DNA from: Candidatus Poribacteria bacterium | GTDB lineage: Bacteria; Poribacteria; WGA-4E; PCPOR2b | Assembly: GCA_965218095.1 (NCBI GenBank) | Contig: OZ244587.1 | Coordinates: forward strand, 2,569,694-2,633,693 | Direction: 5' to 3' | DNA length: 64,000 bases | Shown: in pieces, positions 2,295 through 43,467 of the stretch | Numbering within the stretch: position 1 is the stretch's first letter | How the letters are laid out: each line of letters starts with the position of its first letter | Notes under the pieces: model-generated | Told to the model about the DNA's origin: nothing | Seen by the model: the letters and a program-made list of their open reading frames with translations, nothing else | The model's database searches: none | Program-made: the position numbers and the translations under genes

Positions 2295-3317
2295 TTAAGG
2301 GGTGGGTGCGTCTTCACGCAGCAGTCCTTCTGCCTTTAGATCGCTCCAAAGATCCGCAGGGATAGGGTGTTCGAATATTTCGACATTCGATTGAATGTGC
2401 TCTGGCGTGAGGGCACCCGGAATGGCTGCGGCGACGATAGGATGCGCCAGCGGGAACTGTAATGCGGCTGCCCGTAGCGGCACACCATGTCGATCGCAGA
2501 TGGCTTCAATGCGCCGCGTTTTTTCCAATACCTCGGCAGGTGCCGGGGCATAGGCGTAAAACGCATTCTCCGTTGGGCCTGTCGCCAGAATGCCGGAGGC
2601 AAATACCGCGCCAATCACCACACCGATGCCTCGCTCAACGCATTGTGGAAATTCAGCGTCCAAGACATCCTGATCTAACAGCGTATACGGCATCGCAACG
2701 ATAAAGAAATCAAGGTCCACCATCTCCAAAAAGCGCGGGATGGTGCCCAATTGGTTCACGCCAGCCCCTACTCCTTTTATTTGCCCGCTGGAACGAAGCT
2801 CGTCAAGCGCGCGCCAACCACTGGTGCAGAGTTGCGTCATGTGAGCGGTGATCCGCGCATCGTTCACGTGAAATAAGTGGTCGAGATCGTGGATGAGAAG
2901 GAGATCGACAGAATTCAAACCGAGCCGCTGAAGGCTGTCTTCATAGGAGCGCATGATTCCGTCGTAACTATAGTCAAACACAACATCGAAAGGCAGCCCC
3001 CCTGCCCACATCCCTTTGTCGAAATTATCAAGGTCGCGCGTCGCCCGCAGCACACGCCCGACTTTGGTAGAAAGCACAAATTCCTGGCGTGGCTGTTCGC
3101 GGAAAAACTGTCCGAAACGATGTTCACTTTTCCCATACCCGTAGAACGGTGCCGTATCGAAGTAGCGCACGCCGGCATCCCATGCCGCTTGAAGTGTCAT
3201 CTGCGCTTGCGTTTCGCTAATGATTTCGAAGAGATCTCCTAGCGGCGCCCCGCCGAAACTCAATTTGGTTAAGGCAACCTCCGTACGCCCTAAGTTGCTT
3301 GTCGCTATGTTACCCAT
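2295..3317 (-). CDS. Aldo/keto reductase family oxidoreductase
   Basis: The 340-aa ORF has a GGAGGG RBS. Its N-terminus, LGRTEVALTKLSFGGAPLG...AWDAGVRYFDTAPFYGYGKSE, is a canonical AKR start. Confidence 0.85.
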   Translation of the reverse strand: MGNIATSNLGRTEVALTKLSFGGAPLGDLFEIISETQAQMTLQAAWDAGVRYFDTAPFYGYGKSEHRFGQFFREQPRQEFVLSTKVGRVLRATRDLDNFDKGMWAGGLPFDVVFDYSYDGIMRSYEDSLQRLGLNSVDLLLIHDLDHLFHVNDARITAHMTQLCTSGWRALDELRSSGQIKGVGAGVNQLGTIPRFLEMVDLDFFIVAMPYTLLDQDVLDAEFPQCVERGIGVVIGAVFASGILATGPTENAFYAYAPAPAEVLEKTRRIEAICDRHGVPLRAAALQFPLAHPIVAAAIPGALTPEHIQSNVEIFEHPIPADLWSDLKAEGLLREDAPTP

Positions 3318-4340: not shown

Positions 4341-6266
4341 ATGCGACACGTCATTATCGGCACCGCCGGACACGTTGACCACGGAAAATCTGCACTGATA
4401 CACGCCCTCACCGGAATCGAAACCGATCGGCTCAAGGAGGAGAAAGAGCGTGGGTTGTCGATCGAGTTGGGGTTTGCCTACTTCGATCTGCCCGACGGTT
4501 CACGCGCTGGAATCGTTGATGTCCCCGGACATGAAAGGTTTATCCGAAACATGCTCTCCGGGGCGTACGGGATGGACATTGTGCTGCTTGTCGTAGATGC
4601 GAAGGAGGGCGTGCAGGAGCAGACGCTGGAACACTTGGAGATTCTTGATCTGCTCGGTATCTCGACAGGCATCCTCGTGATGACGAAGGTGGATCTGGTG
4701 ACGCCGGATCAATTGGCAGAATCGGCGGAGATGTCGCAGGAAATGTTGATGGGGACAACCCTCGACGGTTCACCCACGGTCCATGTCTCAGCAGTGACGG
4801 GCGAAGGTTTGGATGAACTCAAGCGGCTGATCGTGGCTTGCGTGGACACCGCCGCGAAAACAGAAAGGCGCGATGACATCCCACGTATATATGTGGATCG
4901 GGTTTTCACGATGACGGGGTTTGGCGCAGTGGCGACTGGGACGCTGATAGGCGGCTCAATCCACCGCGAACAACGGTTAATCAGCCTGCCGCAGGGCCGC
5001 GAAGTACGTGTTCGCGGCGTACAAGTTCATAACGAAACTGCGGAACAAGCCCAGCCAGGGCAGCGAACAGCCTTGAACCTGTCGGGCATCACCAAAGATG
5101 AGATCGAGCGTGGAAACGTTCTCTGTCCGAGCGGGTTTTCCAAGGTCACAGACAATATCGACGTGTCTATCAATCTTCTGTCGTCTTTCCCAAGAATGCT
5201 CGAACATTGGTCACGACTACGATTTTATCTGGGTACGAGCGAGACGTTTTGCCGGGCAATCCCGCTTGTGGACGAAGCGATCCTGCCGGGGGATTCAGCA
5301 CAAATACAACTACGCCTTGAAAGACCGATTTTGACCTTCAAGGGAGATCGATTCATTGTGCGTGATTTCTCAGCGCAATTCACCGTTGGGGGCGGACAAG
5401 TAATCAATCCATTTGCACCTCGCCACGAGCGCTTCACGGAAGAGACTCTTGAGGTGCTGGATCAATGGGAAAATGCTGACGATGCAGAAGTTGTGAGGCT
5501 TGTATTGGCACAAAGCCGTGAGCTCTGTGTCCCGGAAGACTTACTCCGCTACTACCTGCCCTACTCTGATGCAGACTTTCGAGCATTCCTAAAAGACCTC
5601 GAAGGTCGTCAAGAAATTGTACGCTGGCAGGGGGGAACGCCGCTCATTTCTGCGGTGGACCGGACGAAACGAGCGCAAGCAGATCTGATTGACGCTTTAG
5701 GGCGTTTCCATGAACAGCAGCCACTCACGTCCGGTCAAAATGCCTCTCAACTCCGTATCCAACTCCGTTTGGATGAAATCGGCTTTGATAAGATCGTTGA
5801 TTTGCTGAGTCGGCAGGAGCAGGTTGTCAAAGACGGGAATCTTCTGCGGTTGTCATCGCATCAAATCCAATTTTCCGGGGCAGAGGAAGAAATCAAGGAG
5901 AAGGTTGAGGAGCTCTTCTTGAATGCCGAAATCAATACCCTGAACCTAGGTGGATTGACCGCGCAGTTGTCAGAATATCCGTCACAGTCGGTTCAGCAGA
6001 CGTTTTACGCGCTGATGAATCTTGGGCGATTCATCAAGATTGCAGACGACTTTTTTGTTCATGTCCAGACGTTTGAGAAAATCGTCAATTCCCTTACCGA
6101 TTACCTTCAGAAACATGGTATAATAACCGTTGCGGAATTCCGCGAACTTGCACAAACCAGCAGGAAATACGCCGTGCCTTTCCTTGAATATTGCGATGGT
6201 CAGGGAATCACGATTCGTGAGGGGAATCACCGCCGTCTACGAAAATCCACGAAGCGTGAAACGTGA
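4341..6266 (+). CDS. selB: Selenocysteine-specific translation elongation factor SelB
   Basis: The 641-aa ORF starts [45 protein letters not shown], the SelB GTPase N-terminus. The long C-terminal winged-helix region has SelB length, and selC follows directly downstream. Confidence 0.9.
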
Positions 6267-6335: not shown

Positions 6336-6429
6336 GGGAGGGGATAGGGTCCGGTGGCTCTACTGGTCTTCAAAACCAGCTTGCCCATGCAAGTGGGTAG
6401 GTGGGTTCGACTCCCACCCTCTCCCGCCA
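6336..6429 (+). tRNA. selC: tRNA-Sec (selC), anticodon UCA
   Basis: The 8-bp acceptor stem is GGGAGGGG/CCTCTCCC with one G-U pair. The anticodon stem CTGGT/ACCAG carries the loop CTTCAAA, which gives anticodon UCA. There is a long variable arm, a T-arm GTGGG-TTCGACT-CCCAC, discriminator G and an encoded CCA. Total length is about 94 nt, typical of bacterial tRNA-Sec. Confidence 0.85.
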
Positions 6430-14717: not shown

Positions 14718-15142
14718 CAAAGCGGTACATAAGGAGTAATCATGTTACTACAAGAGCTCCATATGTTGGAACCACCTTGTCAGCTCTTGCTGCTGCCGCA
14801 GCATTTGTAGTTTCAGTAATTCTGCGCAGACGAGACGAGCGACGATAGGAGATCCGCGATTGGCAACGGTAGAATGTTCTGTCATTGTCCGCCGTTTGGG
14901 ACGCATTGGGCCGCAGCTATAAGCAGAGGTCGATCGGCTTCTTCGGGTGGTTTTGGCATTGTAGCAAAGAGGAAATCGGCGTGTCACGACAAAAACTTGC
15001 CTATAACCAGGCGTTGCAGTTGACGGTCCGATTCTCGGGCGAGCGCGGCAGTTTGTTGGTTTTTCGTTCGTTAGTACACGGGGTATGCGGTCGCGTGAAA
15101 CGTTCACACGAGACAAGCGAAATTTTCACCATGAGGTCCGCT

Positions 15143-18022
15143 ATGAGGGTCCTGATTGTCGCCAAGACGCGCATGAGCAAGGGGGCGTGTATCGGCGGAA
15201 TCACGCAGGATGGTCAAAGTGTTCGGCTGATTTCGGCGGATACTGACGCTCACGACAGCGCGGGCCGGGAGTATGAAGTCGGCGAGGTCTGGGAAGTTGA
15301 AGCTAAACTGGCGGCTGATGTGATTCCACCGCACATAGAAAATATCGTCGTTTACAAAAAGCACAAGCTTCACACCCTCGAAGGCCCAGTCGCCATCATC
15401 GAACGATTCATGTCCTCCAAAGTAGGCGGACCCGAGGTGCTCTACGAAGGTCTGACCCAATTCACGCCTACCGGTGCACTATACACCGCCGAAAGGACTG
15501 GCATCCCGCCTTACAGTACCATGTTCTGGCGACCCGATAAATCGCTAACACTCGACACGGCTGGCAAGCGCATCCGCTATCGCTATCCGACTGAAGATGG
15601 GGGCCGCACCCTCACTTTCGTTGGCTTCCAGGAGCCGCTCAAGACGCTACCGGCAGGGACGTTGCTGCGCGTTTCGCTGGCTCACTGGTGGCGACCCGAC
15701 GAAGGTACTGACAGTGAGTATCGCTGCTTTGTACAGCTTTCGGGCTGGTTTCTGGAGGAAATCGGCAATCAAGTTGAGCAAAGCAAAATCCCGCCAAGCG
15801 GGGCAATTAAGCAAATCCCCAATCCGCAATCAGTTGAACTGCCCACCACAGATTCCACGTCACCCCAACACCTGCTCAAAACCGTCTTCGGCTACGACGA
15901 ATTTCGGCCGTTGCAGAAAGAGATCATTGACAACATCCTGGGTCAACGCGACACCTTGATTATCATGCCCACCGGCGGCGGCAAGTCATTGTGCTACCAA
16001 CTGCCCGCACTACGCTTCGACGGTCTGACCGTCGTCGTGTCACCGCTCATTTCACTCATGCAGGACCAGGTGACGCAGTTGCAACAGTTGGGCACCCCTG
16101 CCGTTTACCTCAACAGCACGCTCAATCACCGCGAATACCTTGCAACTGCCAACCGGATCAGAGGCGGCGCGGTGAAACTGCTCTACATCGCGCCGGAAAC
16201 GCTCCTGCGCCCCGAAACATTGCTCATGCTCGACCGGTGTCGGCTGGACTGCTTGGCAATTGACGAAGCCCACTGTATTTCTCAGTGGGGGCACGATTTT
16301 CGCCCGGAATATCGCCAACTCGTGTCTGTGCGCGAGCGATTCCCTCACGCTGTGTGTGTTGCCCTCACTGCTACGGCAACGCCCCGCGTTCAAGCTGACA
16401 TCAACGATACGTTAGGTTTCCGCGACGAGAACAAGTTCATCGCCAGCTTTGATCGGGGAAACCTCTTTATCGCTGTTGAGCCGAAGACAGATTTACTCCG
16501 GCAGACCTTCGATTTCCTCGCCGCCCATCCCGACCAGTCGGGCATCATCTACTGTGCGACGCAACGGCAAGTAGATTCGCTGCACGCAGCACTGGTGGAG
16601 CATGGTATCTCCGCGGCGCCCTACCATGCCGGACTGGAGGGCGAAACCCGCGAGCGCAACCAGACCGCTTTTATCCGCGACGACGTGCGGGTCATGGTTG
16701 CGACGATTGCCTTTGGTATGGGCATCGACAAGCCGGATGTGCGCTTCGTGCTGCATGTGGATTTGCCCAAGGATATTGAATGCTACTACCAGGAAATCGG
16801 TCGCGCCGGGCGGGACGGTCTTCGGGCTGATTGTCTCCTGCTGTTCAGTTTTGGCGACGCAGGCACAATTCAACACTTCATCCAACAGGGTGCGGCGTCT
16901 GAGCGTAAGGGACGGGATGCACGTTTGCAGGCTCTGGTGGACTGGGCGACGTCGGGGGACTGCCGTCGCAGCGGACTGCTGACCTATTTCGGGGAGGTGT
17001 ATGAAGCTGAAAACTGCCAGATGTGCGACAACTGTCTCAAGGGAGAAGGTGAACGGGTTGACCTCACCATTCCAGCTCAGAAATTTCTCTCATGCGTCGC
17101 GCGGACAGGCCAGATTTTCGGCATAAATCATATTATCAAGGTGCTGCGTGGTTCGCAGGCCAAAGAGGTGTTGGCGCATGAGCATAACAAGCTCTCAACT
17201 TATGGTATCGGCAAAGCGTATTCCGCCGAACAGTGGAAACTCTTGGCGCAGCAGTTCATCCAGCAGAAACTCCTTGCGTGGGATATGAACTATGGGAGCG
17301 TTAAATTGATGAAGAAAGGGCGGGCTGTCCTCAAGGGAGAGACGGTGTGGGGTGAGCCGATAGAAACGTCAACGTATACCACATCCGGCGAGACCGCCGG
17401 ATACAACCTGGGACTCTTCGAGCAACTGCGCGCCAAGCGTAAAAAACTTGCCGACGCTGAAGGTGTCCCGCCGTACATGATTTTCTCCGACCGCGCCTTG
17501 CAGGAGATGGCGACCTATTGCCCCCACTCGGTTGGGGCGTTTGAAAGGATGCACGGCGTTGGTGGTGTAAAAATTGAAAAATACGCTGAGGTCTTCTTAC
17601 CAATCATCCGTACCTACTGCCAGGAACATAGGCTGACGGAAAAAGCGAAATCAGCGCCTCGTTCAGTGAGTCCCTCAATACCCTCCAAATCTCGCAGCCG
17701 GGAAGTCGGAGAACGGTTTCAGGCCGGAGAATCGATTGCCGAACTGATGCAAGTCTATAGGGTGAAGCGTCAGAGGATTATATCGCACCTGAGCACGTAT
17801 GCGCAGGGGGAAAATCCGTTACCGGTGGCGCGCCTACGTGCCGAGTCTCAATTGTCAGCGGAGATACAAAATCGCGTGCTGGCGACTTTTGACGAACTGA
17901 ATACGCCCTTCCTACGTCCAGTTTTCGATGCTTTTGGCGAAACTGTCAGTTATGAAGAGTTGCACCTGATGCGGGTGATTTATTGGTCGCAAACTCTCGC
18001 TAGTTCTACTGCGACATCTTAG
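15143..18022 (+). CDS. recQ: RecQ-family ATP-dependent DNA helicase with an unrecognised ~240-aa N-terminal domain, an HRDC domain and a C-terminal HTH-like extension
   Basis: The helicase motifs are [30 protein letters not shown], the DEAH box [18 protein letters not shown] and the RecQ-Ct zinc cysteines [13 protein letters not shown]...CQMCDNC. The HRDC region is [33 protein letters not shown]. The likely start is ATG 15143 with a GAGG SD. The upstream in-frame segment 14885-15142 looks non-coding. Confidence 0.8.
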
Positions 18023-28199: not shown

Positions 28200-29940
28200 T
28201 TAGGACTTACGCAAAATAAATAGACACAAGCGGTGAAAAGCAGTAGAATGAGCAGCATGGAGGTGAATATGGCCAAACCCACTCGACTCGACTACTGTCA
28301 GTATTTGCTCAGCAGCCCAATCAACTATACCTTAACCCATTTCGCTGACCATAGCAGAAGTTTCAGTCATGATATGATAAACCGTTATCTCGCCGGTGAG
28401 CGTATCCCGCCTCGCTTGGTATGGGAAAACGTCAAACCGCACATTGTGCAAACCCAACAGGGAAATGTCATCTTTGATGACACCATTTTGGACAAGCGCT
28501 ACGCCCGGAACATCGCGTTGGTGCGTCGTCAGTATAGTGGAAACGCGAAAGCAACGGTATCGGTGTGGTGACTTGTGTCTATGTCAATCCCGCCTTAGAC
28601 CGTTTCTGTACGACCCACAGGGGGATGGCAAGAGCAAATTAGATTACGTTAAGGAGATGTTAGTGCGCTTTTAAGTAACTAAATGCAATGGTGGTGCGAT
28701 TCCATCTATGATAGCTTACAATCATAAGCCTCACCTTAACTGCGTTGCCAGAAATGGCAGGGTGGGAAGCAAAGGGACATGGCGAATTCCTGAGAGGGAA
28801 AGTAGACCCTTGAGACTGGAACGTCAGGCTGAGGATGATAAGGTTAAAATGAAAATTGAACTGATGTTTGAAGCCTCGTAACCTTAGAGCAGGTTAATCT
28901 ACAAGCTAAAGCCTGTAACTAATAAAGTACAAGCATAGGGTTATGCGCTTAACATTCGCATAACCAAAGGTGATATGCTTGAAATTCATATCACTGGTAA
29001 GCCATTGCTTCGGGGCAAAGTCAGAACCTAAGTCATCTATAAATTACATTTAGTGAGATTAAAAGAGTCCCTAAGTCATCTTAAAGATGATATGGGAGAG
29101 GAAGGCAGAAAAAGCATTTTATGCAAAGCCTGCCTAGTGTCAACGTACTGAAATGTATCATAAACAGATTAAGGGAAAATGAGAGCAAATCAAGTCCCTG
29201 CTACATACTTGGCAACTCGTCCCCATGTTCTGAACGATACAAAGTAAGTATGGCTGAGATTATCTTTTAAGTGATGCAGTAAGTTAGACAGCCTAAGACT
29301 TCAAAGCATTATTAAGCATTACCAGTATAAGATAATCGGTAATTGGCAGGGCGAGCCGTGTGCGGTGAAAGTCGCACGCACGGTTTTGATGGGGGGAAAA
29401 TTCCGTAAGGAATCTACCTATCCATACTCCCTACTAGTCTATCACAAGCAACTCTCCTTATGGATTGCTGGTATGCCACCAAAGATTTGATGATACACAT
29501 TGAGCGGCTCCGAAAACATTACTATTGCCCGCTGAAATCCAATCGTCAGGTTGCTTCGAATCCCGATAAGATCGGGGGTGAAACTTTTCTGGGTCGCGTC
29601 TTCTAACAGACGCACGGATTATGTTGTGACCAACGACTTGGCTCAAAACGACACTTCGGTTGCACAACAGGCGTGTAATTAGCGCTGGAAGATTGAGCAA
29701 TTTCACCGGCAAGCCAAACAGTTGACAGGAGTTGAAGGTTGTCAATGCCGAGTGGCACGGCTTGTTCGCAACCATATTGGTTGTGCATTATTCGTTTGGA
29801 TTCGGCTCGAGCACGTGGCGTATCAGACCCAGCAAACCATTTATCAGGTCAAACACGGAGTGTTGGAGGAGTATTTACGACAACAACTCAAATCTCCTGC
29901 GATTCGCATGGAGCTTGCGTAAGTCCTAATTATATCAGAT
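28200..29940 (+). mobile_element. Degenerate IS701/IS4-like insertion sequence whose transposase gene is frameshifted and interrupted by a group II intron
   Basis: The transposase pieces are ...DDTILDKRYARNIALVRRQYSGNAKATV, GIGVVTCVYVNPALDRF and LYDPQGDGKSKLDYVKEML in three frames. After the intron come DCWYATKDLMIHIERL and RWKIEQFHRQAKQLTGVEGCQCRVARLVRNHIGCALFVW. The ends share an imperfect IR ATTAGGACTTACGC at 28205-28218 and at 29921-29937 (reverse complement). Confidence 0.5.
28663..29427 (+). ncRNA. ORF-less group II intron (~765 nt) within the IS701-like transposase gene
   Basis: The 5' GTGCG lies at 28663-28667. Domain V at 29353-29386 is GAGCCGTGTGCGGTGAAAGTCGCACGCACGGTTT, which matches the group II consensus (AGC triad, GAAA tetraloop) apart from compensatory changes. 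A domain VI-like helix follows, ending ...CCATAC. No RT ORF is present inside. Confidence 0.6.
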
Positions 29941-37083: not shown

Positions 37084-37488
37084 CTACGTCCGATTCCTGC
37101 TGCCGATTTCTGCCACCGCCTCGACTTCGACGAGCAGGTCAGGGTTGACCAGTGATGGCGTCGCAACCGTAGCACTGGCCGGGATATTGTTCGGGAACAC
37201 TTCAGCACGCGCCGCTGCATAGTCCGCGTACCGGCTCATGTCGGTGATGAACGCCGTAATCTTTACTACGTCGTCGAGGCTCGCGCCGGCCTCGCCGAGG
37301 ACCGCTCGAACATTCTCGAACACCTAGCGCGTCTGCGCAGCCATGTCGTCCTGGCCGACTACGTTGTCTTGTGGGTCGAAAGCAACCTGTCCTGAGACAT
37401 ACACTGTGTTTCCCATCTGCACACCCTGGGCAATCCGGAATTTGCTCGCCCACGGCCATTGCGGGTTCAATTCGATTCGTTCTGGCAT
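37084..37488 (-). pseudogene. RidA/YjgF-family protein with an in-frame TAG
   Basis: The N-half MPERIELNPQWPWASKFRIAQGVQMGNTVYVSGQVAFDP...DMAAQTR and the C-half FENVRAVLGEAGASLDDVVKITAFITDM...LVEVEAVA are in one frame. They are joined by TAG at 37324-37326, where the family has Gln. Confidence 0.65.
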
Positions 37489-37857
37489 CTTGCACCCCCT
37501 GGTGTCAATTAATTTCGTCAAGTTCATTTCATCTGTCTCTTGGGATGTTATCACAAATTCCAGTGGGAAGCTATGAAAAACTTCAGGAGGTAGAAATTTT
37601 GCAATCGATCCTGCTGGTTGAGTTTTGAGCAGTACAACCGCTTACTTCATCGTACCATGATTCCTATAATCCTCAACCGAAACGATTTATTGATTAAGCT
37701 GCTCCGAAATGGTATACTGGTAGATGAATTAAACACAATCGCAAAGGTTTGCAAACAAAACCGTGAATACCGTTGGTATGGCGGAGCTGGAACTTGCGCT
37801 AGATGATACGAAAAACGCCACATGGATTGAGATGTATCATTACTGGCTGGAGGCGTA

Positions 37858-39604: not shown

Positions 39605-41149
39605 TTATCTCCACTCATCAATACAGACGCTATTTTGATAATCGCATCCCATCATCCGCCAATACCCATTTGTCTCCCCGCCAACGACGACCACATGAAT
39701 ATCACCCACGCGAAATATAGGTATCAACTCATCTTCCGCGGCTTTAAGCCGGGTGGCATAGGGTTCCTCCCCGTTTAACGCTCGTGGGAAGACGTAGTTC
39801 TCTATCAGTTGATAATCCCAATAAACGCCAGCAGACATTGTTGCGTTATCGTGCAGCCATCGGATCAGTTTTTCCTTGGTATCGAATCCGCCCCGATTAA
39901 CAAATTGTCTCGCTGTGATTGGGTCCAATACGAGCGTGGGTGGATTGTGAGGATTCATCCCCCGCAGCATGTTGGTCACATGCTCGCGCCAGTGCTTCTC
40001 TCGCAGCCCCAGATTGAATGTGGTGGATCGACACCCCGTAAAGACACTTACCACGCTGTCTTCCGGTTTAAAGCCATGCTGCACATGAAATGGCTCCCAC
40101 GGACTCCGTTCCTCATTCTCGGCAAAGGTGATGCTGTTATAAGCATAGCTGTTTCCCTGCGACCCCATATACGTCCGTCCCGGATCAGATCCGCCCTGCA
40201 GATTCTGAGACAGCAAACCGTATGCTCTCCCAATGGCAGCGTTGGCGTGATTGTACGGTCCCATCGCCCCGATTTCCCAGTTCATCCTAATTTCATGGCG
40301 AACCGGCCCATTCACCACCACCATGGCGGCCATTGAACTGGTCGTACTGCCTCGTGCGGTGACTCTAGTCGATGCCAGGGCGAGGATTACCGGAAAATAC
40401 GCCGGGCTTGCGCCTGCCATCACCGCATTGATGGCAACCTTCTCCACCGTGTATTCCCAGGCTTCCCATGTCGACGTGGGCCGCATCTGGCCGACCACCT
40501 CATCCGGGCGATGACTCGTCCCCGCCAGCATCTGAGCCACCCGTTCTTCGGTTGGGAGGACAATTGGCAGCGTATCCGTCCACTGATTCTCCAAAAAGAG
40601 ACGATGCAAGTTCTCCACCGTATCCGGTTTAACGAAGCGTGGCGTCGATCGATCAAAACTGACTTTTTGCGTGTCCGCTTCGTTCAGCGGCTGGGTCAGC
40701 GCGTCGATCACCTCCGTCATAACCGGGCGACCGGTGACAGAGTCGTTTCCGTCTATGTACGCCCGTAGCTCGGCCGGGGACTTGCCCATGACCGGCTGGG
40801 GGACGAAGACGAACCGCTGGTGCGGCATACCTTTCGCGTATGCAACCTGCTGAACCACGTCCTTGAAGGATTCCGTCTGGATGGAGGCTGTGGGAACACT
40901 GTACTCACTTTCCAGCGTGATGCAGTGCTCGGCGACCGCCGGCGCACACGTGCTTCAGTGGCCTACGGCGATGACCGCCGCATCTCCCTGCTGCTTGATT
41001 TCCTCGAACAACGCTGCATCTCGTTCCGTATACACGCCAGACTTTCGCCGGAATTCTGCCCTCACGTGCGGCATGTGCTCGGTGAACCAGGCCTGCATCT
41101 GCTGCATCAGAATGTCGCCATCGTCAAATCGGCAGTCGACTAGATACAC
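39605..41149 (-). CDS. Candidate selenoprotein: conserved ~515-aa ORF with a single in-frame TGA (40955-40957) forming a GH-U-STC (UxxC) motif
   Basis: ORFs 40955..41149 and 39605..40858 are in the same frame and separated only by TGA. The translation reads ...QQGDAAVIAVGH[TGA]STCAPAVAEHCITLESEYSVPTASIQTESFKDVVQQVAY.... Downstream of the UGA lies a hairpin GUGC-G-C-C-GGC[GGUC]GCC-G-A-GCAC. Its apical GGUC falls 18-21 nt after the UGA, much like the E. coli fdhF SECIS loop position. It has a GTG start. Confidence 0.5.
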
Positions 41150-41409
41150 CGTTTTGCCATCTAAGCGATTCAGCCGTGGTGTATCGTGGGCGGATAACCC
41201 ATGGGGTTAAGGACCACGATTTTCTCGCTCCCGCTTGCAGTTAATCCAGCACTCCCTTGTTCCTGAATCTCTCCCGAAACCCGTCAATGTTCCCTGTCGC
41301 GTCAAAGTATAAAGGGGGAAGAAAGTATAATAACCTTTCTTCCTTGCCTTCCCTCTTTCTAAGTCTCGAAAGCATCTATAAGAAAGTGACATTTTCTTTT
41401 TTGGTTTTA

Positions 41410-42224
41410 GGTTCTGTTGACATTTCAAGGGAGCCATATAAGAGTGGAGACAAAGCTGAGAAATCCAAAATAACGGATAGCTAACTTCTCGAACCGAGAG
41501 AAGATGCGGCGATACCATTTTATCTTGTTAATGAAACATTCAACCCGATGTCCCTCTTTGTACAGATGTTTGTCGTAATCTCTTTGATCCACACGATGAC
41601 TTTTGGGCGGTATCACCGCAATCGCTCCATTCGCCTCAATAACCGCGATAAAATTGTCGGAGTCATATCCCTTGTCTCCAATCACATACTCGCTTTTATA
41701 TCCAAGTATCAACCCTTCTGCTTCCGCTATGTCGTTTCTTTGACCGGGCGTCAGATGTATTCTTAGGGGATTACCCAGGCCGTCAACGGTGATGTGATTT
41801 TTTGTACTGAATCCCCCGCGAGAGCAGCCTAACGCTTGGTTTTCAGTGCCACCCTTTTTTTTTCGGCACCTGCCGCACACGGGTGCGCTCGAATGATTGT
41901 ACTGTCCACAATAAGCGACTCGATATCGGGGTCAGAGGCGAAGTGGTGGTGCATCTGTGTGAAGCCCCCTTTGTCGCACCACCGAGCAAACCGCTTATAG
42001 AGGGTGTTTACCATAGGTGTCTGGCAGAAGTCTCCATTGAGCACCGCTACGGGTCGCCCAGAGAACAGCTTCGATAAAGCGGCGTGTTGTCGCTTCGTTG
42101 CCAACATAGATGGTGGGACAAGTTAGAAGAAACGAGTATATCTTTTTCCATTGGTCATCGGGTAAGGTTATTGGCATCATTCTTCTATTATGCCACAACC
42201 TTATACTCAAATGTCAACAGAACC
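41410..42224 (-). mobile_element. IS5-family (IS427/IS1031 group) insertion sequence, 815 bp, with TA target duplication
   Basis: The IRs GGTTCTGTTGACATTT at 41410 and its reverse complement at 42209-42224 are flanked by TA at 41408-09 and 42225-26. OrfA reads MPITLPDDQWKKI...LWATRSGAQWRLLPDTYGK and NTLYKRFARWCDKGG in two frames, so it carries an extra ~5-nt deletion. The slippery A9G run lies at 41856-41866. OrfB reads ...GGFSTKNHITVDGLGNPLRIHLTPGQRND...DKGYDSDNF...YKEGHRVECFINKIKWYRRIFSRFEKL. Confidence 0.8.
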
Positions 42225-43189
42225 TAGTACCAGGCTGCCTTGTCCACTACGTTGCGCAGCGGCTCACCGGCGGCAAACCGACGCGCATTTTCGAGGATGA
42301 CCTGAAATCGGCGCTCCGGGATGTTCTCTGCGTCCCTCAGTGCAACGTGAGGCGTCAGCAGGACGTTTGGCAGCAGCCACAGCCGGTGATCCGCGGGCAG
42401 GGGCTCCACCTCGAACACATCCAGCCCGCACCCGGCGATCTCACCGCGCTCGATCGCGTCCGCAAGATCATCGATTTTCATCGTCTTACCGCGACCGATG
42501 TTGATGAGGTAGGCCGTGTTCTTCATCAACCGAAAACGTTGAGCGTTCCACATCCCCTCGGTTTCCGGCGTGTGCGGCGTTGTCGCTATGACGAAGTCCG
42601 CGCTTGGGAGAAGGGCGTCCAGGTCTTCTGGCGTGTGCATCTCAACAAATGGGAGGCCATATTCCGGCCTTGGATCCACGCCGATCGCCGTCATGCCAAA
42701 TTCTGTACATAGCCGGGCGGTCTCATGGCCGATGCCGCCAACGCCAACGATCAATGCTGTCGCTTCAGCAAGGTTGATGTACGGGATTTTGGGAGCATGG
42801 GCATCCCATCGCCGTTGTCGCTGCGCCTCGACGTAATAGGGCAGACCACGTGAGAGCGCCAGCAGAAACATCATGATATGGTGACTGATGTGGTCGGAGT
42901 AGATACCGCGCGGGTTGCAGACCACCACGGGGTGCTCGATCAGTTCCTTGTAGTAGTAGCCCGGAAAAGGGCCCGCATCCGGATTCTGAAGCCATCGCAG
43001 CTTTTTAGTGACCCGGAGCCCCTCGGGGGGCGCCCAGCCGTATGCCGCGTCGGCGTCGACGATCTCACGGCGTGCATCTTTGTCCGTCTCTGGCACGGCG
43101 ACCCGATACTGGGAAAGGGTTTGCTGCAGGCGTGCGGCCCACTGCCGCTTGTAATCGTCCTGCGGCGGCATCATCACAAACTTGAGCAT
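42224..43189 (-). CDS. D-isomer-specific 2-hydroxyacid dehydrogenase (paralog)
   Basis: The NAD motif is ALIVGVGGIGHETARL, with GRG and HTP catalytic regions. The stop TAG (42224-42226) is made of the last IS base plus the TA duplication. Confidence 0.75.
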   Translation of the reverse strand: MLKFVMMPPQDDYKRQWAARLQQTLSQYRVAVPETDKDARREIVDADAAYGWAPPEGLRVTKKLRWLQNPDAGPFPGYYYKELIEHPVVVCNPRGIYSDHISHHIMMFLLALSRGLPYYVEAQRQRRWDAHAPKIPYINLAEATALIVGVGGIGHETARLCTEFGMTAIGVDPRPEYGLPFVEMHTPEDLDALLPSADFVIATTPHTPETEGMWNAQRFRLMKNTAYLINIGRGKTMKIDDLADAIERGEIAGCGLDVFEVEPLPADHRLWLLPNVLLTPHVALRDAENIPERRFQVILENARRFAAGEPLRNVVDKAAWY

Positions 43190-43467
43190 GGTACACGTTC
43201 CTCCGCAATCGTAAAGTTTTCGTACAAAACGTCTCATTTTCGGTAAAACACAATTTTTTTATTATACCACAATCTGTATCAGTCAGAACGATAGTATACA
43301 AATCGTCGAGGCGAACCCTTCGATTGGTGGGTGGTAGAGTAGTGAGTCGTAGCGGCGAAAAATCACCACTCACCTGCGTACCAATGTAAACCACCACCTT
43401 GACCAATCATGAAAAAATGATTGAATGCCCCATCCTAGGTCTGGGACATCTTATCGAAGATAAACCG

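Follow-up and report, generated by a model that had tools for sequence, protein, structure and literature searches.

Within contig OZ244587.1 of a Candidatus Poribacteria bacterium (NCBI GenBank assembly GCA_965218095.1), the 64,000-nt stretch from position 2,569,694 to 2,633,693, hereafter called the window, contains a minus-strand reading frame that is interrupted by a single TGA. This locus raises the question whether the TGA specifies selenocysteine (Sec) and, if so, whether the gene that carries it still functions. The comparisons described here show that the UGA at 40957-40955 is a genuine, ancestral Sec codon in a long-form member of the UGSC selenoprotein family, Sec insertion itself being predicted from conservation. 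A conserved Sec codon with its selenocysteine insertion sequence (SECIS) is no guarantee of a working gene, and a separate 16-nt deletion probably silenced the window copy.

A long-form UGSC gene with an in-frame UGA

The minus-strand frame extends from 41206 to a TAA at 39607-39605 and has the TGA at 40957-40955 as its sole interruption. The open reading frames (ORFs) 41149..40955 and 40858..39605, which the first-pass annotation had described as collinear and separated by one TGA in a UxxC motif, indeed form one frame. Reading through the TGA yields ...GDAAVIAVGH-U-STCAPAVAEHCITLE..., in its wider surroundings ...QQGDAAVIAVGH-U-STCAPAVAEHCITLE..., which is a U-x-x-C arrangement with the motif context AVGH-U-STCAPAVAEHC. 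The segment 5′ of the Sec codon (41149-40958) encodes ..TPRLNRLDGKTVYLVDCRFDD..AVGH and is the part of the UGSC domain recognized by the Pfam and NCBIfam profiles. The UGA, placed by the codon alignment of orthologues, encodes the first residue of the U-S-T-C redox motif. The remaining coding region (40954-39605) comprises the end of the UGSC domain, a linker and a C-terminal domain of ca. 400 aa, and ends with the TAA.

Residues 10-130 of the fused protein matched Pfam PF24696 (UGSC) with 66.5 bits against a gathering score of 25, bearing out the likeness to UGSC-type selenoproteins mentioned in the first-pass annotation. The match spans profile positions 38-157 of 172. The UGSC domain is incomplete in this frame, with the first ca. 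37 profile positions outside the match and the conserved VLNPMGYPP...APRL segment out of frame. With the NCBIfam model NF041046, 'UGSC family (seleno)protein', the score was 62.1 bits, which is under the equivalog cut-off of 125. Since intact long-form orthologues likewise reach only ca. 57 bits, the long forms are a related subfamily and not NF041046 equivalogs. The same NCBI name is carried by two of the returned homologues (P0043 and P0068).

UGSC-containing protein is an established, functionally uncharacterized prokaryotic selenoprotein family; 255 of its Sec sequences were found in the Global Ocean Sampling data, and it was commoner in non-marine samples (PMC2398784). The family is also included in a 2026 review (PMC13188914). 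It has been known since 2005-2008 and what is new is this unannotated member. The term 'unannotated' in the first-pass annotation thus holds for the locus, which is truncated to 394-446 aa in public gene calls, and not for the family. The window gene shares with the UGSC family (PF24696, NF041046; Zhang & Gladyshev 2008, PMC2398784) the Sec-x-x-Cys position, the alternation of Sec and Cys and a SECIS directly downstream, and the function of both is uncharacterized. It differs from the short form, for which the NCBIfam profile has 147 positions, in the motif U-S-T-C instead of U-G-S-C and in a length of ca. 550 aa that includes the extra ca. 400-aa C-terminal domain; the window copy moreover lacks the N-terminal ca. 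35 residues of the family.

A 'UGSC/Unknown_1 fusion' is already recorded in the Global Ocean Sampling selenoproteome (PMC2398784, Fig. S1A) and, from what that figure gives, has in common with the window gene that a UGSC domain is joined to a conserved domain of unknown function. 'Unknown_1' would be a candidate for the window C-terminal domain; the stored part of the sequence file of that study contains no GH-U-STC sequence. PrdB/GrdB (PF07355) are likewise bacterial selenoproteins with a UxxC motif (PMC2398784, Table 2), but the likeness is one of motif only, and a Pfam scan of the window protein at E values up to 1 returned UGSC alone. The window gene is a long-form UGSC member with an N-terminal alpha/beta domain carrying U-S-T-C, followed by the C-terminal domain.

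A search of the fused protein against 5.8 billion proteins returned thousands of homologues, and 80 orthologous loci from species-representative genomes were used for codon comparison. The codon opposite the TGA was TGA in 60 of these 80 loci and TGC or TGT in the other 20; other codons did not occur. Among the nearest protein homologues (73-85% identity) almost all have a length of 430-441 aa and start just past the TGA position. Homologues at 64-67% identity are 546-558 aa long, cover the whole query including its N-terminal segment, and read GVGH-C-STCAP with Cys opposite the TGA. On the contigs of two close relatives a UGSC ORF of 103-112 aa is directly followed by an ORF of 436-441 aa, the pattern commonly seen where a Sec codon has divided a gene. 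Selenoprotein genes are typically miscalled in this way, with the split at the UGA both here and in most of the closest relatives (103-112 plus 430-441 aa), and a large and widespread family is therefore mostly stored as fragments.

The TGA forms occur in Latescibacterota, Chloroflexota, Rokubacteria, Binatia, Acidobacteriota, Actinomycetes and several proteobacterial and Desulfobacterota lineages, and the majority of the Cys forms come from Alphaproteobacteria. Motif variants among the 80 orthologues are U/C-S-T-C, the type to which the window U-S-T-C belongs, U-S-S-C, U-S-M-C, U-P-G-C and C-S-N-C. The assignment of the TGA as a real Sec codon follows from this alternation of TGA and Cys together with a downstream hairpin that covaries only in the TGA forms, as described below.

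Some members of the orthologue set have unusual layouts. L078, with two motifs (at 3222 and 5115), appears to contain the long UGSC selenoprotein gene twice in tandem, with a TGA in each copy, and in L050 an upstream in-frame ORF of 557 codons that begins PGCAPEVSG gives the same appearance of tandem long copies. Five Cys-form loci (L032, L044, L059, L064 and L067) have a frame break in the linker ca. 92-104 codons past the CxxC, for which a frameshift, an assembly error or further pseudogenes in the family are possible explanations. L017 (DASRWT010000085.1, binned as Candidatus Nitrosocosmicus) is a bacterial-type Sec form with an in-gene bacterial-type SECIS on a contig of an archaeal metagenome-assembled genome; this assignment is probably a binning error.

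The SECIS hairpin and the Sec-decoding genes

Folding of the mRNA downstream of the UGA with RNAfold gave a hairpin at +11 to +33 (U of UGA = 1; 40947-40925, minus strand) with a minimum free energy of -14.9 kcal/mol. It consists of a 4-bp apical stem (40941-40938 with 40933-40930), an internal loop (G15,C16/A29) and a 4-bp lower stem. The apical loop GGUC occupies +21 to +24 (40937-40934), i.e. 18-21 nt past the UGA, exactly where the first-pass annotation had put it. The fold was no more stable than those of shuffled sequence (z = -0.5 for a 38-mer and +0.47 for a 76-mer) in this GC-rich region, and Rfam searches of the region at the gathering score and at E values up to 10 gave no match to a bacterial SECIS family. 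As the hairpin energy is no better than chance, its significance rests on the comparison of orthologues.

For this comparison 45 nt from the UGA onward were aligned without gaps, using 60 distinct Sec-form and 20 Cys-form sequences. In the Sec forms the apical pairs 17-28, 18-27, 19-26 and 20-25 are formed in 60, 59, 54 and 60 of the 60 sequences, respectively, and compensatory changes on both sides occur at three of the four pairs (GC/CG/AU, GC/AU and CG/AU). Neither the pairing nor the covariation of these sequences was attained in any of 500 column shuffles, and the covariation score fell from 0.279 to at most 0.135 when the 3′ partner was displaced by 1-3 columns. In the loop of the Sec forms G21 and C24 never vary, and conservation of G22 and U23 is at least 90%; two of the loop positions are third-codon positions. 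The hairpin is kept in the TGA-bearing orthologues only. In the Cys forms the 8-pair stem (columns 13-20 with 25-32) is 33% paired, not above the level of shuffles, pair 17-28 is formed in a single sequence out of 20, and the loop positions vary. The lower stem depends on the clade; it is contiguous in 'GL-U-STC' forms and contains a bulge or internal loop in 'GH-U-STC' forms, the clade of the window gene. Coupled residue changes at codons 7 and 9 (Ala...Ala, Thr...Val, Glu...Ser) preserve the RNA pairs, which is the pattern expected where an RNA structure constrains the coding sequence. We conclude that the hairpin is a SECIS, as predicted from covariation.

The hairpin resembles the E. coli fdhF SECIS in its location directly 3′ of the UGA within the coding region, its GGUC apical loop and an unpaired base or internal loop beneath a short apical stem, and the two systems also share a genome-encoded tRNA-Sec and a SelB with winged-helix domains. 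Unlike in fdhF, the lower stem of the window family varies by clade. The GGUC loop of fdhF lies at +22 to +25 (G23/U24 numbering). Relative to fdhF, the GGUC spacing in the window appears one nt shorter. Decoding of the UGA in the orthologues presumably depends on SelB and tRNA-Sec, which the hairpin at 11-33 nt downstream would recruit, and the GGUC loop would present the G/U that is recognized by SelB.

The window carries both of these components, in agreement with the first-pass annotation. The selB gene (4341..6266, plus strand) encodes an apparently intact Sec-specific elongation factor of 641 aa with the Pfam domains GTP_EFTU, Beta-barrel_SelB, SelB-wing_2 and SelB-wing_3. Its homologues are annotated as selenocysteine-specific elongation factors, and the closest named ones (66-84% identity) are all from Candidatus Poribacteria. 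The selC gene for tRNA-Sec (6336..6429, plus strand; anticodon TCA) was found by ARAGORN and matched Rfam RF01852 with 76.6 bits against a gathering score of 47. Neither selA nor selD was found among the ca. 27 window ORFs scanned with Pfam, which speaks against the proposed decoding.

The 5′ deletion and the state of the window copy

The orthologues all begin with M..(K)ITVLNPMGYPPKVxxKxxAPRLxxLDGKTVYLVDCRFDD, in which P4, G6, P9, A17, L23 and G25 are each at least 95% conserved (76 orthologues). In the window this N-terminus is split over frames. Three-frame translation of a remnant 5′ coding segment at 41217-41170 (minus strand) gives VVLNPMGYPPTIHHG*, running from GTG 41217 to a TGA at 41172-41170, and its VLNPMGYPP matches the conserved N-terminus of the 76 orthologues; the continuation TPRLNRLDGKTVYLVDC lies in another frame, that of the rest of the gene. 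A MAFFT DNA alignment with seven orthologues, and a direct comparison with the closest one, L085 (85% protein identity), which has CACCCAGTTGGGCATG at the deletion point and reads ...PPTITQLGMAPRL..., showed that 16 nt are missing between 41183 and 41182. Lost are about five codons (codons ca. 12-17) between NPMGYPP and APRL, and the reading frame changes after codon 15.

Translation from the ancestral-type GTG 41217 therefore ends after 15 codons. This start is preceded by a GGGAG (41232-41228, minus strand), 10 nt to its 5′ side, which matches the orthologue start region in position and is a putative Shine-Dalgarno sequence. The upstream ORF of the first-pass annotation begins at 41149; this ORF start is an artefact of the 16-nt deletion and not the ancestral start, the conserved N-terminus lying upstream in the other frame. 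From the TAA at 41209-41207 down to 41149 the main frame contains no ATG, GTG or TTG, so that GTG 41149 is the only in-frame start remaining, and it is not preceded by a Shine-Dalgarno motif. Translation from the original start would stop after the 15 codons and protein could be made only from GTG 41149. A product from this codon would be short of ca. 35 N-terminal residues, which in an AlphaFold2 model of a Cys orthologue (mean predicted local distance difference test score (pLDDT) 84.8, predicted template modeling score 0.83) include a short strand and a well-ordered segment with pLDDT ca. 90. Programmed frameshifting was considered as a way to join the two N-terminal frames and rejected: only 8 nt separate the motifs, without a slippery heptamer, and the orthologues have 16 nt more.

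The gene was also compared with three related assemblies, namely a 5.30 Mb contig, the short-contig Logan assembly of ERR13605531 and a 6.27 Mb contig at 43x coverage. They represent two conspecific genomes and differ from the window at 0.2-1% of positions. The TGA is present in all three, and the deletion junction is identical in them (L001, L002 and L090, the last at 43x). The deletion appears to be fixed in at least three conspecific genomes. Over the four strain sequences the gene has five variable sites, four non-synonymous and one synonymous. Two of the non-synonymous changes fall in the STCAPAV motif, both from Ala to Val (STC[A]P and AP[A]V). These substitutions suggest relaxed selection, with counts too few for a test.

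Signs of disturbance occur on both sides of the gene. An IS5-like insertion sequence of 831 bp (41402..42232, minus strand), with 24-nt terminal inverted repeats and a DDE_Tnp_1 transposase in broken frames, lies between a 2-hydroxyacid dehydrogenase gene and the UGSC gene, 185 nt upstream of the ancestral start, and its right inverted repeat overlaps the final codons of the dehydrogenase ORF (42224-43237). The copies of this element in the related strains carry numerous substitutions, and in addition a 19-nt tandem duplication in L001 and a 5-nt insertion in L090. A simple promoter scan of the 185 nt between the element and the ancestral start found nothing, which is weak evidence. On the other side, 3.5 kb downstream of the UGSC stop, a RidA/YjgF-like (Ribonuc_L-PSP) gene (37084-37527, minus strand) has a TAG at 37326-37324 (...AAQTR*VFENV...). 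This TAG is found in all strains, and the same split into 67 and 79 aa is called in L001 and L090. E. coli RidA presumably has a sense codon, probably for Gln, at about this position. The TAG looks like a true nonsense mutation rather than a Sec codon, and its presence in all strains indicates that gene decay occurs in this lineage.

Could the TGA itself be an ordinary nonsense mutation, with the hairpin a chance feature of GC-rich coding sequence? The unremarkable fold energy would fit this explanation, as would gene disruption elsewhere in the genome, for example by the TAG in the RidA-like gene. A nonsense mutation is nevertheless extremely improbable, given a TGA in 60 of 80 orthologues over many phyla with Cys in the remainder, and a stem that covaries where the codon is TGA but disappears where it is Cys. 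We also consider it very improbable that the TGA, the 16-nt deletion or both are assembly or sequencing errors. The related contigs are metagenome assemblies, one of them at only 13x coverage, but the window shares both features in identical form with three assemblies that deviate from it at other positions, and loss of 16 nt is atypical of homopolymer error.

A more serious alternative is that the gene still functions, through re-initiation at GTG 41149 after translation of the 15-codon leader, giving a shortened selenoprotein of ca. 514 aa that keeps U-S-T-C and the C-terminal domain. Several observations speak for such a product and against loss of function. If the deletion is set aside, the 514 codons from 41149 to 39605 read without interruption save for the Sec codon in the window and in all three related assemblies; the gene retains its SECIS and every residue that is invariant in the alignment, and it still codes for the first beta-strand of the domain (YLVDC). 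The stop of the short ORF (41172-41170) lies only 21 nt from GTG 41149, so that re-initiation may occur there. The 4:1 ratio of strain changes rests on five sites and is non-significant, and the corresponding counts in neighboring genes are 0:2 and 2:0. Against continued function stand the absence of a Shine-Dalgarno motif before GTG 41149, the six highly conserved positions and the well-ordered segment in the lost residues, a UGSC profile that begins ca. 37 positions before the surviving start, and strain changes that are mostly non-synonymous and include the active-site motif. On balance a functional shortened protein seems rather unlikely, though its probability is not negligible, and the window copy is probably a recently inactivated pseudogene whose Sec codon and SECIS are still intact. 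The first-pass annotation had mentioned a pseudogene as a caveat, which probably describes the outcome correctly but for the wrong reason, as the lesion is the 16-nt deletion and the TGA is not a nonsense codon.

C-terminal domain, neighboring genes and other features

A thioredoxin fold has been suggested for UGSC (PMC2398784). In the AlphaFold2 model of the Cys orthologue, residues 35-151 form five beta-alpha units, and the third strand is followed by a loop that holds the Sec/Cys at the N-terminal end of a helix. This predicted placement would correspond to the usual position of a redox-active CxxC. For the ca. 400-aa C-terminal domain there is no Pfam model and no solved relative was found by sequence or by fold. 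The domain is present in 4172 clusters at 50% identity, these thousands of sequence clusters being distributed over more than 10 phyla, and it contains a conserved GCR motif. Near-complete proteins with this domain are nearly all either ca. 530-570 aa long or ca. 420-450 aa, the latter being split calls of Sec forms, which suggests that the domain is mostly fused to the UGSC domain.

Flanking ORFs were clustered for 78 orthologous loci. A gene for a ca. 312-aa Pyr_redox_2 protein resembling thioredoxin reductase (TrxR) and containing a CxxC is present in 27 of the 78 (L008, L010, L014, L015, L020, L022-L024, L028, L029, L034, L036, L040, L045, L046, L048, L053, L054, L056, L057, L059, L063, L066, L067, L072, L075 and L081). 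It is co-directional with the UGSC gene in all but one of these 27 loci and within 400 nt in 22, and it accompanies Sec as well as Cys forms in both clades. Family-wide this TrxR-like gene is the only recurrent neighbor. In five loci (L057, L058, L064, L066 and L068) the UGSC gene is immediately followed by a SelD-like gene (AIRS/AIRS_C). A conserved operon in the clade of the window gene was considered and rejected, the neighbors there being variable (GFO/IDH/MocA oxidoreductase, FGGY kinase, 2-hydroxyacid dehydrogenase).

From these gene neighborhoods, intact relatives would act as thiol/selenol oxidoreductases. Electrons would pass from NAD(P)H via FAD to the CxxC of a dedicated reductase and then to the UxxC of the UGSC domain, after which the Sec/Cys pair would act on, or together with, the C-terminal domain. 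Such an arrangement resembles the thioredoxin/TrxB couples, with which the long forms share a UxxC/CxxC center at a helix N-terminus after a beta-strand, as seen in the model, and a Pyr_redox_2 flavoprotein of ca. 310 aa with its own CxxC that adjoins many orthologues. Weighing against this electron route, it is based on adjacency alone in about one third of the orthologous loci, and no TrxR-like reductase gene is adjacent to the UGSC gene in the window. We tentatively propose, as a possibility that we would not yet call probable, that the 'USTC' long forms are the catalytic selenoenzymes of an uncharacterized redox pathway comprising NAD(P)H, the TrxR-like flavoprotein, the Sec/Cys center and a substrate bound by the C-terminal domain, of which the Poribacteria copy would be a natural knock-out. 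The TrxR-like neighbor and the C-terminal domain provide a starting point for finding the function of long-form UGSC proteins, one that applies to the family as a whole and is not specific to the window.

Two further features of the window are unrelated to the UGSC gene. ARAGORN called a tRNA-Thr (GGT) at 16683-16759, inside an ORF for a 1045-aa RecQ-like helicase (14885-18022), and Rfam found no tRNA there at the gathering score; the call is probably a false positive. Rfam also detected pieces of a group II intron at 28707-28797 and 29351-29427, with 35.6 bits for D1-D4-7 and 67 bits for domain V/VI (RF00029). The pieces are ca. 550 nt apart, which is too close for an intron-encoded protein, and they may therefore represent an ORF-less or degraded group II intron.

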